Notes: a model not told the origin generated them from the letters alone. Shown: positions 5,946-34,081, numbered from the stretch's first letter. The stretch is 34,081 nucleotides of DNA from a virus (IMGVR_UViG_3300045988_110848:1-34081); one strand, 5' to 3'. A program made the numbers and translations.

Positions 5946-6188
5946 ATGGCAAAAAAAAGTAACGATGGAAAGAAAAAGGTTGATGTTATCAGTTTAGATA
6001 ACAAGCCAGTTAATCCAGAAGTACAAAAAGAAAAAGTAGAAGTACCTACAAAGTTCGTTAAAGTTGGTTCTACTACTCCAAAAACAGTAGAAAGTAAAAT
6101 CAAGTTAAATAATGGAAGAGTATATAAAAACTTAGGCAATGGCTATGGTATGTATTCTGATAATGGACAAGTATTTAGACTTAAATAG
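5946..6188 (+). CDS. Hypothetical lysine-rich 80-aa protein
   Basis: AAGGAGG SD at 5931-5937 before ATG 5946. The track start at 5907 lies in a hairpin. Confidence 0.55.
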   Translation: MAKKSNDGKKKVDVISLDNKPVNPEVQKEKVEVPTKFVKVGSTTPKTVESKIKLNNGRVYKNLGNGYGMYSDNGQVFRLK

Positions 6189-6197
6189 GAGGTAAAT

Positions 6198-6434
6198 ATG
6201 GAGTTTATTAAGTTAAGAGAAGATAGATACTTAATCAAAGATAGCAATGGTTTGATAGTATCTAATGAAGAGAAACTAAAACTAGAAAAGAAAGAATTAA
6301 TCATTAAAGATATAGAAAGCAATGAGTGTCAAGGAAAGACTACTCAAAGAATTGAGGAAATAGATAGGGAGTTGGAAAATGGAAACAAGTCTAAATCTAA
6401 CACTATCAAAAAAGCAAAGTCAACTACTAAATGA
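6198..6434 (+). CDS. Hypothetical 78-aa coiled-coil protein that overlaps the terL start
   Basis: TAGGAGG SD. Its position directly before terL is where a small terminase subunit is usually found. Confidence 0.5.
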   Translation: MEFIKLREDRYLIKDSNGLIVSNEEKLKLEKKELIIKDIESNECQGKTTQRIEEIDRELENGNKSKSNTIKKAKSTTK

Positions 6435-7980
6435 TATAATTAGTCCTAATCTAAATGAGATATATGTATTAGGAAGCACTCAAAGTGGTAAGACTTATGA
6501 TATATGCTTAGGGTGTATCTTATATGCACAAGCCTTATATAATTATAACCCAAAAGAAACCTATTTTGGTTCTATAACTGGTTGGAGTTTGGAAACATTA
6601 AAAGGAAACATATTAGAGCCTTTAAAGAAGTTTTTAGATGATATGAAGTTAGAAAAAGGCAAAGATTACATATTAAGGTGGCAGACTGATGAAAAGTATC
6701 TAGAAATATATAATATTAGATACTATTTCTTTGGTTTTAATAATGTACTTGCATTTAATAAGATATTAGGTAAACCTTTGATATTTGAATGGATAGATGA
6801 AAGTGCTAGAATATACTCACAAGATAATTTAAGAGAACCATTTAATGAATTTCCTGGTAGACAAGTATCTTATGCAGACCATCCTTATTTAAAGACTATA
6901 CATTCATTCAATGTCGAGGGTGGGGAAAATCATCCATATAAGATTGATTACATAGATAAGAAACCTTATGCTAAGCATTATTCCTTTTTTCCTTATGATA
7001 ATCCTAAGATAAAAACAGAAGAAGCAATGCGAAAGGTATTAGAAATGTTTCCACCTGGAAATCTAAGAGAACAAAAAATATTTAATAGATGGATACTTGC
7101 GACTGGTAGGGTATTCAATACTATAAATACTATAGACAATTTAGATAATTATGCTTTTAGAGAAATAGGAATAGGAATAGACTATGGTTCAGTTCACGCA
7201 ACAGCCTTTGTGCCTATTGCTCTTGCTTATGATAAAGTAAATAAGAAATGGGTGTTAATAAGGTTAGAATATTATTACCATAATGCTAAAGAAGAACAAG
7301 ATAACCCTACAACCGAATATTTCAGCAAACAATTAAGATTATTCTTATTGTATCTAAAAAGTGAATATGGACAAGTGCCTATAACTACAATGGTATTAGA
7401 TAGTGCAGCCGCTCATTTCCATAATAGGTTAATTGCTGATAATATATCACATACATTAATCAATAAAAGTATGGATGATGTAGTTGAGGGAGTTCAATAT
7501 ATGCAATCTTTGTTCTATAAGGGATATCTGCTTATATACAAACAAAAAGCAATTAAGCATATAACTGATAGTGGTGAGTTAATTTATAGTGGTAAAGATG
7601 ATGGAATGCTTGAATTAGAGAGTTATAGATATGATTTAAAGGCAAGTTCAAAAAGTGGAAAAGAAGCCTATGTAAAAGAGTTTGATGACCATATAGATGC
7701 TTGCTTAACAGGAGATACTATTATTGCAACAGATAGAGGTAATTTCAAAATAATTGATTTAGTTGGAAAAAGTGGAAATGTTAAATGCTTTGATGGTAAT
7801 AGATTTATATATAAAAATTTTAAAGATGTAAGGCTTACAAAAAGAAAACAAGACATATATAAATTAAAATTATCAAATGGTTATGAATTAAAAGGTACAT
7901 ACGACCATCTTATATTAACTACAAAAGGCTATAAGAAATTAGGAGAATTAACTAAAAAAGATAAAATCATTTGCAATTGA
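6379..7980 (+). CDS. terL: Terminase large subunit N-fragment (extein 6379-7701) fused to an N-intein (7702-7977); ends in a TGA stop
   Basis: Walker A GSTQSGKT. The nuclease motif DDHIDA is followed directly by intein block A CLTGDTIIAT and block B GTYDHLILT. Confidence 0.85.
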   Translation: METSLNLTLSKKQSQLLNDIISPNLNEIYVLGSTQSGKTYDICLGCILYAQALYNYNPKETYFGSITGWSLETLKGNILEPLKKFLDDMKLEKGKDYILRWQTDEKYLEIYNIRYYFFGFNNVLAFNKILGKPLIFEWIDESARIYSQDNLREPFNEFPGRQVSYADHPYLKTIHSFNVEGGENHPYKIDYIDKKPYAKHYSFFPYDNPKIKTEEAMRKVLEMFPPGNLREQKIFNRWILATGRVFNTINTIDNLDNYAFREIGIGIDYGSVHATAFVPIALAYDKVNKKWVLIRLEYYYHNAKEEQDNPTTEYFSKQLRLFLLYLKSEYGQVPITTMVLDSAAAHFHNRLIADNISHTLINKSMDDVVEGVQYMQSLFYKGYLLIYKQKAIKHITDSGELIYSGKDDGMLELESYRYDLKASSKSGKEAYVKEFDDHIDACLTGDTIIATDRGNFKIIDLVGKSGNVKCFDGNRFIYKNFKDVRLTKRKQDIYKLKLSNGYELKGTYDHLILTTKGYKKLGELTKKDKIICN

Positions 7981-8005
7981 CACGATTAGATATTTATTGT
8001 ATAAT
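7977..8005 (+). promoter_or_regulatory. Promoter P2: TTGACA-17 nt-TATAAT with an extended TG, in front of the intein-borne HNH gene
   Basis: The -35 box overlaps the TGA stop (7978-7980) of the TerL N-fragment; spacer counted by hand. Confidence 0.6.
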
Positions 8006-8023
8006 TAACTAGGAGATGGTTAT

Positions 8024-8650
8024 ATGATAAAATATGAAAATGGTTATGCTTATGTTGATGGTTATAAATTTAAGAAAAATACAAGAGATAATTATTATTT
8101 ATCTTCTACCAATATTGGCAATAGAAGAAAATATTTGCACATTTATATATGGGAAAAGCATAATGGAGAAATACCAAAAGGTTATGATATACACCATATA
8201 GACCACAATAAAGATAACAATGAAATAAGCAACCTTAAAATGATATTAAAAAGAGAACATAGCATATTACATTCAAAAGAATTAACCGAAGAACAAAAAG
8301 CAAAAAAAATAAAGAACTTTAATGAAAAGGCAAGACCAAAAGCAATAGAATGGCATAAATCAAAAAAAGCAGAAAAATTCCATAAAGAACAATATAAAAT
8401 TTCTCTAGGAAAAATGAAACCGCAAAAAATTACTTGTGAAAATTGTGGGAAAGATTATTATTCAATTTGTAATGGTAGAAATAAATTTTGTTCTAATAAA
8501 TGTAAAAGTGCTTATAGAAGAAAAATAGGAGTAGATAATATTGAAAAAGAATGTATCAAATGTGGAGAAAAATTTGAAGTTAACAAATATTCAAAAAGAG
8601 AGCAATGTTATAATTGCTACCCCTGTAGAAATAAAAAAACTTCCAAATAA
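8024..8650 (+). CDS. Free-standing HNH homing-type endonuclease with C-terminal zinc ribbons
   Basis: AGGAG SD 8 nt before the ATG. HNH core HHIDHNKDNNEISNLKMILKREHSILH. CxxC pairs near the C-terminus. Confidence 0.85.
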   Translation: MIKYENGYAYVDGYKFKKNTRDNYYLSSTNIGNRRKYLHIYIWEKHNGEIPKGYDIHHIDHNKDNNEISNLKMILKREHSILHSKELTEEQKAKKIKNFNEKARPKAIEWHKSKKAEKFHKEQYKISLGKMKPQKITCENCGKDYYSICNGRNKFCSNKCKSAYRRKIGVDNIEKECIKCGEKFEVNKYSKREQCYNCYPCRNKKTSK

Positions 8651-8774
8651 AGAAGATGTTTATAATATGGAAGTGGAAGAAGTACATAATTTTGTTGCTA
8701 ATGGAATTGTAGTTCATAATTGTAGATATATCATAATAGAGTTTAAAGAAACTGATAGAGCACCAGTAGTATAA
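8541..8774 (+). CDS. terL: C-intein (Hint-like from about 8610 to 8720) plus 17-aa TerL C-extein CRYIIIEFKETDRAPVV
   Basis: Blocks F/G VYNMEVEEVHNFVANGIVVHN|C. TTG 8541 is preceded by AGGAG (8527-8531, 9-nt spacing) inside the HNH ORF. Confidence 0.7.
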   Translation: MKKNVSNVEKNLKLTNIQKESNVIIATPVEIKKLPNKEDVYNMEVEEVHNFVANGIVVHNCRYIIIEFKETDRAPVV

Positions 8775-8788
8775 AAGGAGTTGAATAT

Positions 8789-9310
8789 ATGGAAATGCAA
8801 GAAATTTGGAAAGATATCAAAAATTATGAAGGATTATATCAAGTCAGCAATTATGGGAAAGTAAAAAGTTTACCAAGAAAAGGAACACAAGCAAAAGAAG
8901 AAAGAATATTAAAAGTCAGTTATACTTATAATGGCTATGAAAGAGTTAATTTGTGTAAGAACAATAAAAATAAACGATATTTAGTTCATAGATTAGTTGC
9001 GGAAACATTTATTCTAAATCCTAATGAATATCCTCAGATAAATCATATTGATGAAAACAAGCAAAATAATAAAGTTAGTAATTTAGAATGGTGTACTCGT
9101 TCTTATAACATTAATTATGGTAATAGAAATAATTGTTTGAATAAAGAAGTGTGGCAATATGATTTAAAAGGGAAATTAATAAAAAAATGGAAAAGTACAA
9201 TGGAAATACAAAGAAATTTAGGATTTAAAAATCAAAATATAAGTTCTGCGTGTAGAGGAACATACCATAAAGCATATAATTATATATGGAAATACAAAGG
9301 GGTTGATTAA
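8789..9310 (+). CDS. NUMOD4 + HNH_3-type homing endonuclease
   Basis: EIWKDIKNYEGLYQVSNYGKVKS and INHIDENKQNNKVSNLEW motifs; AAGGAG SD. Confidence 0.8.
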   Translation: MEMQEIWKDIKNYEGLYQVSNYGKVKSLPRKGTQAKEERILKVSYTYNGYERVNLCKNNKNKRYLVHRLVAETFILNPNEYPQINHIDENKQNNKVSNLEWCTRSYNINYGNRNNCLNKEVWQYDLKGKLIKKWKSTMEIQRNLGFKNQNISSACRGTYHKAYNYIWKYKGVD

Positions 9311-9527
9311 AATCGAAATTCGTTGCAAATCTACAAAAAGATATTTATTTAAAATAGAAATTGAAGAATATAGTAAAAACCTAAAGAAAATGGGAATAGA
9401 AGTGGAAACTCCTTTAGTAATAGAATACCCATGCCCCAAGTGTAAGATGATAGAAGTATATGAAATCTACCCTACTCATTACATACATATAAGAAGTTAT
9501 AAAAGAGATGTTGACAATAATAAATAA
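9303..9527 (+). CDS. Doubtful small ORF (CPKC motif) with a TTG start
   Basis: Track ORF only; poor SD spacing. Confidence 0.3.
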   Translation: MIKIEIRCKSTKRYLFKIEIEEYSKNLKKMGIEVETPLVIEYPCPKCKMIEVYEIYPTHYIHIRSYKRDVDNNK

Positions 9528-9539
9528 TTATGCTATAAT
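9511..9539 (+). promoter_or_regulatory. Promoter P3: TTGACA-17 nt-TATAAT with an extended TG
   Basis: Perfect hexamers; spacer counted by hand. Confidence 0.65.
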
Positions 9540-9585
9540 TTAAGAGATAGAAAAGTGCGAAAAAGTGTGTCGTAAACATAAGAAG

Positions 9586-9617
9586 CATATAGTTAAAGAG
9601 ATAACTATATGTTTTTT
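9586..9617 (+). terminator. Intrinsic terminator: 10-bp stem CATATAGTTA/TAACTATATG, 6-nt loop, T6 tract
   Basis: Paired by hand; lies about 45 nt downstream of the P3 -10 box. Confidence 0.75.
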
Positions 9618-9647
9618 ATTATTTATACACATAGAAAGGAGTTAGAA

Positions 9648-9986
9648 ATGAGAACTCTAATAAAAAAAATAAGCGACATTTCATTGAATATTTTTGATAA
9701 AATTGCGGAAAAATCACAAAAATTGAAAAAATATCTAATAAATAATAAGAAATGGACTTTGTATTTATATTTAAATGGTCAATGCATAGATAAAAGAAAA
9801 ATAGACAAAGACTTCGCTCCTATGGGTAAGTTCTATGTAGTAAAAGTAAGAGGCATGAAACATTTACTAGGAACTAATAGAAAAGTACAAATTGTGGTTC
9901 AAAGTTATAAATATAAATTGACTGATGAAAAGAAAAGAGAGGCTCATATTGAAACTCTAATATATGAAGGAGTTGATATTAAATGA
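9648..9986 (+). CDS. Hypothetical basic protein
   Basis: AAAGGAG SD before ATG 9648. The track start at 9609 lies inside the terminator. Confidence 0.55.
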   Translation: MRTLIKKISDISLNIFDKIAEKSQKLKKYLINNKKWTLYLYLNGQCIDKRKIDKDFAPMGKFYVVKVRGMKHLLGTNRKVQIVVQSYKYKLTDEKKREAHIETLIYEGVDIK

Positions 9987-11347
9987 ATAATCAAGTAAGA
10001 TTAAAATCAGCATACAACTATTTAGAGGCTCCATATATAAGAGTAGAGGCAACAGTAACTCAACCTGGTATAACTAATGGAAAGCCTAATATTTACAAGA
10101 AAAATGACTATATAATTGCTCCTAGTGGTAAAAAGGTTGCTACATATATAGTTAATCAAATATTTGGCTCAGACTTAGTAACACAGACAGAGGGGTTATC
10201 AATAAACTGGTTAATGCCTACACTTAAAGAGAGCCTAGAATTAGCAGTATATGAAGAAGAAAGTTTCATATTAATAAATAAGTTTGATAATAAAATATAT
10301 CTAGAGTGTATCAAGAAATCAGACATACACGATTTAGTACAAAAGTATGATAAAGTAATAAGCGGTACTATCATACAAGAGTTTGTCACTAAAGAAGATA
10401 TATACGAACTTCATAGAAATATTAAGTTAGAGAATGGTATTACTTATATGACTATGGAAGTGTATAAAGAAGATAAAGGTGGTAAATTAATACCTGTTGA
10501 GTTGGGTACATTTAATTTAAGAACTGGTAATGAATACATTGCTAAGTACATATTACCTTATGAAAACCTAATCAACATAGATATAGGTCAAAATTTCTTT
10601 AAAGATAGTAAAAAGTTCCTAAATGAAGAAATGGAAATATTCAATACCTTTGTTGATGAAATAGAAAAGACTAAGACTAAGATAGTAACAAGTCAACACT
10701 ATCAAAGCGGAGACATAGTAACTAATTGGCAACCTGCAAGTAATCATTACAAAGTAGATACATTATCAGTAGGAAAGTTGGCAGATTATTTTACTTTATT
10801 ACCAGGAGATAAAGACCACCAATTATTTGAATTTTTACAAGGTAATATTAGATTTAATGAATATATAAGTTCGTTTAAGTTCTGTGATTATCAAGTAATA
10901 CAAATGGCTGGACTAAGTCCTGCAACATTTGGTTATGAAAAAGATGCTTACCAAAATGTCGATAGTATAGATTTAAGTAAGAATAATTCCGATATGACTA
11001 TTGAGGCAATAAAAACTCAAATAGAACCTCAAATAAATCATTTACTTGAAAATGTTGTTAAGGCTCAACAAGCGAACAATATACAAGTTAATTTAATACC
11101 TACTGAGTTAAATTGGGACTATGGAGTAAACGAGAAATTCAATGATATGAAGAAACTTCAAGTATTAGGAAGAATACAAAGTATCGGAAGTGTTCCATAT
11201 AGTGTAAAGGCTAAAATAATAACACCTATTCTTAATAAATTAATTGATGATGATTATGTAGGTAAGAATAGTAAATTAATAGAAGAATTAATTAATGCTA
11301 ATAAAGAGGAAGAAGAAGAAATACAAGTTAAGTTTGGAGAAGTATAA
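9983..11347 (+). CDS. Portal protein
   Basis: 454 aa. Sits after terL and before the Mu-F/gp7-like head protein. Acidic C-terminus. Confidence 0.75.
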   Translation: MNNQVRLKSAYNYLEAPYIRVEATVTQPGITNGKPNIYKKNDYIIAPSGKKVATYIVNQIFGSDLVTQTEGLSINWLMPTLKESLELAVYEEESFILINKFDNKIYLECIKKSDIHDLVQKYDKVISGTIIQEFVTKEDIYELHRNIKLENGITYMTMEVYKEDKGGKLIPVELGTFNLRTGNEYIAKYILPYENLINIDIGQNFFKDSKKFLNEEMEIFNTFVDEIEKTKTKIVTSQHYQSGDIVTNWQPASNHYKVDTLSVGKLADYFTLLPGDKDHQLFEFLQGNIRFNEYISSFKFCDYQVIQMAGLSPATFGYEKDAYQNVDSIDLSKNNSDMTIEAIKTQIEPQINHLLENVVKAQQANNIQVNLIPTELNWDYGVNEKFNDMKKLQVLGRIQSIGSVPYSVKAKIITPILNKLIDDDYVGKNSKLIEELINANKEEEEEIQVKFGEV

Positions 11348-33780: not shown

Positions 33781-34081
33781 AATCGATTTAAATACAATTA
33801 CTTTTGAACAAATAGTAAAAATATTAGGAATATTTAACAAAATGTTAGAAAGTGGTATTTTGCAAGTAGATTTAGAAAAATCAACAGCATATTTCAATAT
33901 AGATGATTGTTTAACATATTTAGAGCAACAAATTAAGAGATTAAAACAAGAAAACGAGAAATTAAAAGAAACAATAGATAAAGTAAATGTATTTCTTAAT
34001 AATCATGATAAAAATGCAGGTAAATTATATTATAAATATAATAATAAATACCTATTAAGTGAAATTAAAGAAGATATCAGA
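33773..34081 (+). CDS. Hypothetical coiled-coil protein; the ORF runs off the window end and continues at nt 48-71
   Basis: ATG 33773. 103 codons stay open to the last base. After the overlap the frame continues K-I-L-K-E-V-E-stop (TAA 69-71). Confidence 0.6.
   Translation, partial: MNKIDLNTITFEQIVKILGIFNKMLESGILQVDLEKSTAYFNIDDCLTYLEQQIKRLKQENEKLKETIDKVNVFLNNHDKNAGKLYYKYNNKYLLSEIKEDIR
34035..34081. repeat. Second copy of the 47-nt terminal overlap
   Basis: Identical to nt 1-47. Confidence 0.95.

Follow-up and report, generated by a model that had tools for sequence, protein, structure and literature searches.

An HNH endonuclease gene between the halves of a split intein in the terminase large-subunit gene of a siphovirus-like phage and its relatives

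The stretch of viral DNA analysed here, IMGVR_UViG_3300045988_110848:1-34081 (34,081 nt; hereafter the window), carries a gene for the terminase large subunit (TerL; gene terL) whose coding sequence is shared between two open reading frames (ORFs), the first ending and the second beginning with one half of an intein, and a free-standing gene for an HNH endonuclease is situated between them. Arrangements of this type are known as fractured genes from the work of Dassa, London, Stoddard, Schueler-Furman, and Pietrokovski (2009, NAR 37:2560; PMC2677866), which also yielded the split inteins gp41-1, NrdJ-1, and IMPDH-1, and contiguous inteins are well known in terminases (PMC4760082). This article describes the organization of the split terL and its putatively mobile cassette, their recurrence in related and cultured phages, and the way in which an essential terminase is likely to be made from them.

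The features of the locus are listed in Table 1. The upstream ORF (6379-7980) encodes 533 amino acids (aa), comprising 441 extein and 92 intein residues, and reads ...KEFDDHIDA|CLTGDTIIATDRG...KGTYDHLILT...KDKIICN from the end of the N-extein through the N-terminal intein half (IntN). The downstream ORF (8541-8774), which encodes the C-terminal intein half (IntC) and the C-extein, terminates ...EDVYNMEVEEVHNFVANGIVVHN|CRYIIIEFKETDRAPVV. The starts of the three ORFs fall at 1, 2, and 0 modulo 3 and thus in three different frames, and the IntN frame encounters TGA, TAG, TAA, and TGA inside 50 nt past 7980, so that neither read-through nor a single insertion or deletion (indel) can restore one ORF. 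Intein halves and endonuclease gene together form a cassette of 1,019 nt (7702-8720), inserted 17 codons before the end of terL in the nuclease motif D-H-x-x-D-A|x-R-Y. The initial annotation of the region had described a TerL ORF continuing into intein blocks A and B and closing at TGA 7978-7980 after 92 intein residues, a separate-frame HNH ORF (8024-8650) preceded by AGGAG, and a third-frame ORF with intein blocks F and G followed by a 17-aa C-extein, and had argued from the start positions that a single indel could not merge them. This description of ORFs, coordinates, and frames proved correct in every detail, and the stops in the IntN frame bear out the argument about indels.

Table 1. 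Features of the split terL locus, in window coordinates
Feature	Position	Strand	Remarks
terL part 1 (N-extein, TerL residues 1-441)	6379-7701	+	ATPase with Walker A GSTQSGKT and most of the RNase-H-like nuclease domain, to ...DDHIDA
N-intein (IntN), 92 aa, with stop TGA 7978-7980	7702-7980	+	CLTGDT... to ...KDKIICN
Predicted sigma-70-type promoter (TTGACA-N17-TATAAT) that would serve HNH and the IntC downstream of it	7977-8005	+	12/12 match
Candidate RNA hairpin, -10 region paired with HNH start-codon region	7990-8036	+	Folding prediction
Shine-Dalgarno AGGAG of the HNH gene	8011-8015	+	8 nt before ATG 8024; seen in sequence
Free-standing HNH gene, 208 aa	8024-8650	+	HNH_3 motif, then two CxxC...CxxC zinc ribbons
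Shine-Dalgarno AGGAG of the IntC ORF	8527-8531	+	9 nt before TTG 8541; seen in sequence
C-intein (IntC), 60 aa	8541-8720	+	+1 frame relative to HNH; 110-nt overlap with HNH 3' end
IntC conserved core NVIIATPVEIKKLPNKEDVYNMEVEEVHNFVANGIVVHN	8604-8720	+	
terL part 2: C-extein CRYIIIEFKETDRAPVV, 17 aa and stop	8721-8774	+	First residue is the +1 Cys nucleophile

By its motifs and profile matches, IntN plus IntC is a class-1 intein. Cys1 of block A, at 7702-7704 (CLTGDT), is invariant in 16 homologues, as are the Thr and His of block B (T-x-x-H, GTYDH in the window), and blocks F and G end ...NFVANGIVVHN|C in the window, the HN pair and a +1 Cys or Ser being invariant in 10 homologues. These splicing residues are retained although IntN identity falls to 44-57% among the 10-16 homologues compared. 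Against the Pfam profile Intein_splicing (cut-off 35.8), the halves taken singly fall short, IntN with 23.8 bits (profile positions 4-93) and IntC with 34.5 bits (E 2e-8; positions 109-155), whereas joined in silico they score 64.4 bits over positions 4-155 of 155. The joined halves also pass both TIGRFAM thresholds (TIGR01445 intein_Nterm, 42.6 bits against a cut-off of 24.5; TIGR01443 intein_Cterm, 37.6 bits against 15.6). Their closest solved structures are mini-inteins, with Spl DnaX (7cfv) matching at E 1.7e-10 over an alignment that begins at residue 2 and reaches the terminal Asn, and the Ssp DnaB mini-inteins matching too. The alignments place the split in the canonical loop for endonuclease insertion, as had been proposed at the outset: the two Pfam matches lie on either side of it, the break coincides with the linkers that replace the endonuclease in the Spl DnaX and Ssp DnaB mini-inteins, and a contiguous mini-intein among the TerL relatives (P0066) joins ...EVIC-YKENVMIV... 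at the equivalent point. The N-halves of the homologues all terminate within a few residues of one common point.

The host gene was assigned through PHROGs, tblastn matches to annotated TerLs, and a structural profile match, since neither Pfam nor NCBIfam has a direct match to this TerL. The intein-less homologue matches phrog_2 (terminase large subunit) with E 1.6e-16. A phmmer search of the intein-less TerL against the PDB gave noise only, and a profile search was then used, in which the family profile aligned end to end with the TerL structure of phage D6E (5oe8, E 2e-12), placing its ...fDdsidalRY... on ...NDHQLDADRY... of D6E. From these matches, the protein is an N-terminal ASCE ATPase with a Walker A motif followed by a C-terminal RNase-H-like nuclease, and the C-extein corresponds, by alignment, to the end of helix alpha-6 and the C-terminal arm of D6E TerL, an arm that contributes to ATP binding and has been proposed to contact the portal (PMC5727402).

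A megablast of 6000-9400 found no match among GenBank phages, and relatives were therefore sought by protein search, which returned 990 TerL relatives. The closest cluster representative, P0001, is intein-less and 458 aa long and has the C-terminus ...KEFDDHIDALRYIIIEFKETDRAPVV. The N-extein is 95% identical to its residues 1-442, and the C-extein matches its C-terminus at 16 of 17 residues, with Leu replaced by Cys at the +1 position. Intein-less alleles of the sister phages are likewise 458 aa long and read ...DDHIDALRYIIIEFKETDRAPVV, so the predicted splice product, with the junction peptide EFDDHIDACRYIIIEFK, would be the intein-less allele except for this Leu→Cys change. The earlier suggestion that joining the exteins restores a terminase nuclease motif is thereby substantiated, P0001 being equivalent to N-extein plus C-extein with Leu at +1. 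No second terL is present in the window, where tblastn of P0001 matches only 6379-7704 (residues 1-442) and 8721-8771 (residues 442-458).

The arrangement is conserved far beyond the window. In the sister set of 24 related IMG/VR loci, the element is carried by seven, and the other 17 have an intein-less terL of 454-458 aa and no HNH gene; the three-frame layout, with the same stop, promoter, Shine-Dalgarno sequence, and IntC start, is identical in six sister genomes (L001-L005 and L017). Divergent relatives with 54-66% TerL identity, from independent Logan, SRA, ENA, and JGI samples, share the architecture of TerL-IntN, an HNH_3 gene of 206-213 aa, and an IntC that is always at +1 and overlaps the HNH 3' end. 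Encoding of the two intein halves by separate ORFs is shared by six sister genomes, by four divergent lineages, and by CL2 and BL3, two phages in culture. In Lactobacillus phage CL2 of L. paracasei (NC_028835; L035), TerL-IntN is CL2_2 and the HNH protein CL2_3, and the IntC/C-extein segment (...GGFIVHN|CMDATRY..., about 2537-2760) is unannotated in GenBank/RefSeq; the conserved ATGATG runs into a stop in this phage, making a downstream GTG with AGGAAG 7 nt upstream the likely start. In Brochothrix phage BL3 of B. thermosphacta (NC_015254; L036), TerL-IntN is gp2 and is followed by gp3, which comprises IntC and C-extein (2311-2607; ...GGFIIHN|CIDATRY...), and the HNH gene is reduced to a zinc-ribbon remnant in another frame; the record names the C-half just "gp3". 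A screen confined to the terL regions of CL2 and BL3 found no intact terL, and the viability of both phages with the split arrangement lends indirect support to trans-splicing.

A loss of the endonuclease similar to that in BL3 is seen in L022 (IMGVR_UViG_3300045988_171550; 6250-6900). There, a 498-nt deletion between ATTTG(C/T)AAT repeats removes the promoter and the HNH catalytic domain, and both intein halves are kept in different frames, with IntN fused in frame to the zinc-ribbon tail of the HNH protein in a 591-aa ORF and IntC still at +1. Four settings are known for the HNH lineage as a whole. In Pseudomonas phage PAE1 and Exiguobacterium phage vB_EauM-23 the gene is free-standing and directly follows an intact terL; in Clostridium phage phiCDHM19, Tetrasphaera phage TJE1, and Acinetobacter phage Highwayman it is nested at a +2 offset in a contiguous TerL intein; in the window and CL2 it is free-standing between split halves; and in BL3 and L022 it is degraded. 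The frame offset from HNH to IntC is +1 in all intein contexts. The nested examples (L037 phiCDHM19, 443-2842; L038 TJE1; L042 Highwayman) encode contiguous TerL precursors of 730-800 aa, in which the in-frame translation across the HNH gene is a low-complexity filler, free of stops for about 600 nt.

The proteins of the window are already present in public databases as "hypothetical protein", and the 90%-identity cluster of the HNH protein has 134 distinct members, on many contigs of 26-34 kb. The arrangement is a widespread mobile cassette that has gone unrecognised in public records, not a one-off. The three kinds of allele with which the initial annotation had proposed to compare the locus, namely intein-less, contiguous (the mini-intein P0066), and fractured, all exist among the relatives, and the assembly error and the helper or second terL that it had named as possible refutations are largely excluded by the independent assemblies, the cultured phages, and the absence of a second terL from the complete window.

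The HNH ORF matches Pfam HNH_3 (E 3.5e-16) and PHROG phrog_15471 (E 2e-38), and its description as a separate unit, with a predicted promoter and a Shine-Dalgarno sequence of its own, is strengthened by the conservation of these signals in divergent relatives. The promoter overlapping the TerL stop was found where it had been reported and matches at 12 of 12 positions; its -35 box TTGACA (7977-7982), within which the IntN stop codon lies, is separated by a 17-nt spacer from the -10 box TATAAT (8000-8005). Four perfect TTGACA-N17-TATAAT sites occur in the 34-kb window (7977, 9511, 25487, and 30731; all +) against 0.16 expected, a number reached in 0/100 shuffles. The cassette promoter is identical in L001-L005 and L017, which also keep the HNH Shine-Dalgarno sequence, and can be recognised in the divergent relatives L025 (12/12), L032 (11/12), and L029 (10/12), where spacer and flanks have diverged and the IntN stop again falls inside the -35 box. 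The promoter would presumably be in use. The candidate hairpin that spans the -10 box has a minimum free energy of -17.3 kcal/mol (z -1.95), a value equalled in 12/200 shuffles, AT-rich sequence folding so easily; analogous hairpins of different sequence are predicted in L025 and L032. By the model, the window hairpin could form only in transcripts reading through from terL.

The start of IntC is most likely TTG 8541, preceded by AGGAG 8527-8531. The equivalent position holds a start codon in other lineages (TTG in L032, ATG in L025, and ATGATG in L029 and BL3 gp3), the gene callers of ENA predict a 77-aa ORF from TTG 8541, and the conserved start survives in L022 and BL3, from which the HNH gene has been deleted. 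An alternative start, TTG 8574 with GGAG at 8564-8567 (6 nt), is possible but was rejected in favour of 8541, which is conserved across lineages and chosen by the gene callers; in L022, the GGAG before this second candidate is changed to GGAA. As BL3 and L022 are without the cassette promoter, IntC is presumably translated from the terL operon mRNA as well.

Both the intein and the endonuclease are under purifying constraint. Pairwise ratios of nonsynonymous to synonymous substitution rates (dN/dS) are 0.16-0.42 for IntN, 0.15-0.38 for the part of the HNH gene not overlapping IntC, and 0.09-0.25 for the N-extein; values well below 1 indicate that IntN and HNH are both maintained as proteins. 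HNH genes are 98-99% identical in nucleotide sequence across host genes that are 86-93% identical. When the window is compared with L003, 87% of nucleotides agree in the N-extein, 93% in IntN, 98% in HNH, 96-97% in IntC, and 61% in the 54-nt C-extein region (stop codon included), and synonymous divergence drops from 0.64 for the N-extein to 0.14 for IntN and 0.06 for HNH. Judged from such divergence, the cassette is 4-10 times younger than the host gene. Most intein-bearing alleles have an intein-less allele as their nearest N-extein neighbour, which together with the youth of the cassette indicates homing, and in the pairs L001/L015 and L017/L020 the 120 nt that precede the insertion point show no difference at all. 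A pattern of this kind is expected for recent homing, or for recombinational gain and loss, with very short co-conversion tracts. An Erf-like annealing protein encoded in the window genome could serve the repair by which the cassette would be copied.

Two insertion sites are used within the same nuclease motif. The upstream site, D-H|(S/C)-(I/M)-D-A-x-R-Y, is the one occupied in most relatives, among them CL2 and BL3 as well as P0066 with its contiguous mini-intein, and in the window (7696-7704 and 8718-8726), L003-L005, L022, and P0046/L025 the intein lies four codons further on, at D-H-x-I-D-A|C-R-Y. The predicted intein-less target of the endonuclease reads, for example, ...GATGACCACATAGATGCCTTAAGATATATC... 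in L006. A simple neighbour-joining tree, built without bootstrapping, groups the inteins of the downstream site in a single clade that lies within those of the upstream site, which suggests a single shift of the insertion site. The 5' end of the intein, TGCTTAAC, resembles the target GATGCTTTAAG at the downstream site; microhomology between the two as the cause of the shift was considered and dropped as too speculative.

Taken together, the comparisons make it likely that the region is a functional fractured terL with a mobile HNH cassette and that TerL is made from it by trans-splicing. IntC would be translated from its own start inside the HNH 3' end, fused to the last 17 TerL residues, and the two TerL polypeptides would associate via their intein halves. 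Cys1 and the Thr and His of block B would then drive the N-S acyl shift, the +1 Cys would perform transesterification, and the terminal Asn would cyclise, to yield a 458-aa TerL with the junction ...DDHIDA-CRYIII.... In co-infections, the HNH enzyme, a predicted endonuclease, would cut or nick intein-less terL alleles, its presumed target, and recombinational repair would copy the whole cassette into the cut allele. Where the initial annotation held that the phage must assemble its terminase by trans-splicing, we infer that it does so, and that the cassette homes, with strong confidence from the comparative evidence.

Several points weigh against this interpretation. Splicing and HNH cleavage are predictions from sequence. 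With a C-extein of only 17 aa, and with H-x-x-D of the nuclease motif contained in the N-fragment, that fragment may be active independently of splicing. A single-sequence AlphaFold2 model of the fused halves was uninformative, with a predicted local distance difference test (pLDDT) score of 32, and the HINT fold would follow from homology to solved mini-inteins. An otherwise conserved segment of block G, ANG(I/M)VVHN, carries Gly→Arg in L001, L002, and L017 (ANRIVVHN in place of ANGIVVHN, at the equivalent of window 8703-8705); the change may reduce splicing or be tolerated, and not every allele need be fully active. The candidate IntC start, chosen from conservation and gene calls only, is a TTG codon located inside the HNH ORF, and transcription from the cassette promoter would be expected to begin at about 8012, inside the HNH Shine-Dalgarno sequence.

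The shortness of the C-extein and the presence of the whole H-x-x-D-A part of the nuclease motif in the N-fragment at the insertion site of the window would suit an arrangement in which the intein halves merely dock the two fragments, or in which the N-fragment acts alone, the C-piece complementing it non-covalently or being dispensable. Precedent is provided by NrdA of phage Aeh1, which according to the account in PMC2677866 is split by an HNH gene and active without splicing. Such a function would place no demand on the residues needed for splicing alone (Cys1, T..H, HN, and +1 Cys/Ser), but these are invariant across 10-16 homologues at 44-57% IntN identity, and IntN evolves with dN/dS well below 1. 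In each of two distinct host-gene backgrounds, moreover, the C-extein has been kept identical to the C-terminus of the intein-less alleles, and the equivalent segment of D6E TerL, the end of helix alpha-6 and the C-terminal arm, contributes to ATP binding (PMC5727402). Docking or independent activity of the fragments is accordingly improbable. A somewhat different proposal accepts splicing and regards the split intein as a post-translational switch on the packaging nuclease, retained for its benefit: the C-fragment would be supplied from the sigma-70 promoter of the cassette and the N-fragment from the late operon, and TerL would appear only when the two pools meet. Persistence of the split after endonuclease loss in BL3 and L022, and the move of the site by four codons, could be read as retention of this kind, but inteins are hard to delete precisely, which accounts for both just as well, and the switch is considered unlikely.

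Alternatively, the locus might be a dying terL in a defective phage, or a contiguous HNH-containing intein that errors of assembly or sequencing have frameshifted; contiguous TerL inteins with a homologous HNH do exist in phiCDHM19, TJE1, and Highwayman, and the region has A-runs of an indel-prone kind. The same stop, promoter, spacer, and frames are, however, found in seven IMG/VR genomes, in a number of SRA, ENA, and JGI assemblies made independently, and in the finished genomes of cultured, plaque-forming phages. The IntN frame runs into four stops inside 50 nt after 7978, the contiguous relatives themselves have HNH out of the intein frame (+2), dN/dS is below 0.45 for all parts, and the 134-member HNH cluster is spread over many 26-34 kb contigs; a dead or artefactual gene is thus highly improbable. 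Recoding by stop bypass and frameshifting, or RNA splicing, could in principle yield one precursor that splices in cis, and the HNH/IntC overlap at +1 in every lineage and an A7 run within it (8633-8639) are what such a mechanism might employ. Recoding would, however, have to happen twice over 43 nt that hold four stops. The A-run varies between relatives (A6G in L003-L005), for which reason a programmed frameshift joining HNH to IntC on A7 was dropped, and Rfam has no match in 6000-10000, hence no group I or II intron or other intron-like RNA there. A single recoded precursor is the least credible of the explanations weighed here. Terminase-adjacent HNH proteins can be packaging factors, and the HNH protein of the cassette might be a co-factor of the HK97 gp74 type, the split being a by-product of its recruitment; homologous HNH_3 genes follow an intact terL directly in PAE1 and vB_EauM-23, with no intein there. 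Set against this are the 17 of 24 near-identical sister phages that keep the same packaging module without an HNH gene at or near terL, the loss of the HNH catalytic domain in BL3 and L022, and the constant movement of HNH with the intein halves as one young cassette, and a packaging role as the reason for the split is very unlikely.

A functional fractured terL assembled by trans-splicing remains the preferred reading, and by the defining features of Dassa et al. (2009) the window locus belongs to the fractured-gene class, with an HNH endonuclease and a canonical split site. As in their examples, two adjacent ORFs on the same strand each carry an intein half at the end or start, a free-standing homing-endonuclease gene stands between them, its 3' end overlaps the start of the IntC ORF, and the upstream stop and downstream start are supplied by the inserted element. 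IntN, at 92 aa, is within their range of 88-105 aa, and a hairpin similar to those they noted upstream of the endonucleases may exist in the window, though weakly supported (PMC2677866). Differences lie in the overlap (110 nt, 8541-8650, against 6-69 bp), in the length of IntC (60 aa if it starts at 8541, against 33-54 aa), in the host gene (a D6E/PBSX-like TerL of low-GC siphoviruses as opposed to marine T4-like genes), and in the availability of complete genomes and cultured phages, which the earlier set did not have. The endonuclease in the window is of the HNH_3 type, whereas the set of Dassa et al. had GIY-YIG and Vsr-like enzymes only and an HNH fracture was merely predicted (PMC2677866); the GIY-YIG/Vsr-like type describes that original set and does not define the class. 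Their collection also included a gp17-like terminase locus, atypically split near the N-terminus, with a C-part of 122 aa containing all motifs except N1 (PMC2677866). No description of an HNH-fractured TerL, or of inteins in CL2 or BL3, was found in the literature searched, subscription journals lying outside the search.

AceL-TerL is the name of a naturally split terminase intein. GOS-TerL, to judge from its citation in PMC7090010, is likewise a naturally split intein in a phage large-terminase gene; GOS-TerL/AceL-TerL is split atypically near its N-terminus, whereas the window intein is split at the canonical site and lies 17 codons from the TerL C-terminus. The nrdA/mobE locus of Aeh1 (Gibb and Edgell, as summarised in PMC2677866) also has a self-regulated HNH gene between the halves of an essential gene in one operon, and the mobE ORF, like the window HNH, overlaps the downstream half; in that summary, the NrdA fragments have no intein halves and assemble non-covalently, while the TerL fragments of the window carry complete splicing motifs. 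Out-of-frame, or nested, endonucleases in phage inteins have been described by Gosselin, Arsenault, and Gogarten (2025; bioRxiv 10.1101/2025.01.02.630785). The nested HNH of phiCDHM19, TJE1, and Highwayman is homologous to that of the window (37-42% identity), occupies the same place in the TerL intein, and has a frame that precedes the IntC frame by +1; there, however, the intein frame is open across HNH in a cis-splicing precursor, whereas stops close the IntN frame of the window and leave the intein split. The cyanobacterial Ssp and Npu DnaE inteins are, like that of the window, class-1 inteins split at the canonical site in an essential enzyme rebuilt by trans-splicing, but their halves, which are lineage-fixed, are encoded at distant places and do not flank an endonuclease gene, whereas the window halves are 560 nt apart around a polymorphic and apparently active cassette. 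Sequence similarity between the window intein and the DnaE inteins is low (E 0.002-0.8).

Complete genomes, together with two phages in culture, CL2 and BL3, now document the HNH-type fractured gene that Dassa et al. predicted in 2009, so that the gene-breaking model for the origin of split inteins can be put to laboratory tests and not just followed in metagenome fragments. One homologous family spans every stage: free-standing HNH, mini-intein, nested HNH, fractured gene, HNH-less split, and shift of site. It also offers new naturally split inteins for protein engineering, with a canonical split, Cys1/Cys+1 and Cys1/Ser+1 variants, and very short native C-exteins. In public records, the proteins appear as "hypothetical protein", or TerL-IntN as a terminase large subunit with no mention of the split, the IntC/C-extein ORF being unannotated, and automated pipelines could misread an essential terL as truncated. 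The value of the system lies in the full allelic series, the insertion-site shift, the cultured phages available for experiments, and the correction of annotation.

The window ends in a 47-nt terminal direct repeat (1-47 and 34035-34081), which marks it as a complete circular assembly of about 34 kb. The genome is siphovirus-like, with 27.9% GC and all genes on the + strand, among them genes for a portal, a minor head protein, a tape measure, an amidase, a DNA methyltransferase, a DnaD-like loader, and the Erf-like annealing protein. A scan of genome contigs gave only two prophage-like matches, one in a metagenome-assembled genome (MAG) of Bacilli and one in a MAG of Staphylococcaceae, and the host is thus placed only roughly.

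A second, unrelated free-standing homing-endonuclease gene (8789-9310; NUMOD4, HNH_3, and NUMOD1; phrog_59, E 4e-49) begins 15 nt past the terL stop, where it takes the place of the first part of the following gene. Among the sister loci only the intein-less L018 shares it, and L016 has a different ORF of 188 aa at this position; the terL 3' end and the adjoining intergenic sequence resemble an endonuclease-gene hot spot. In P0047 (L043:1887-3317), a relative with 98% identity, terL is interrupted after ...HNRLI by an in-frame ORF of the LAGLIDADG type (...YVDGDGCLSY...), at which the contig ends; a group I intron, or some other insertion at a terL site distinct from that of the cassette, may account for the interruption.

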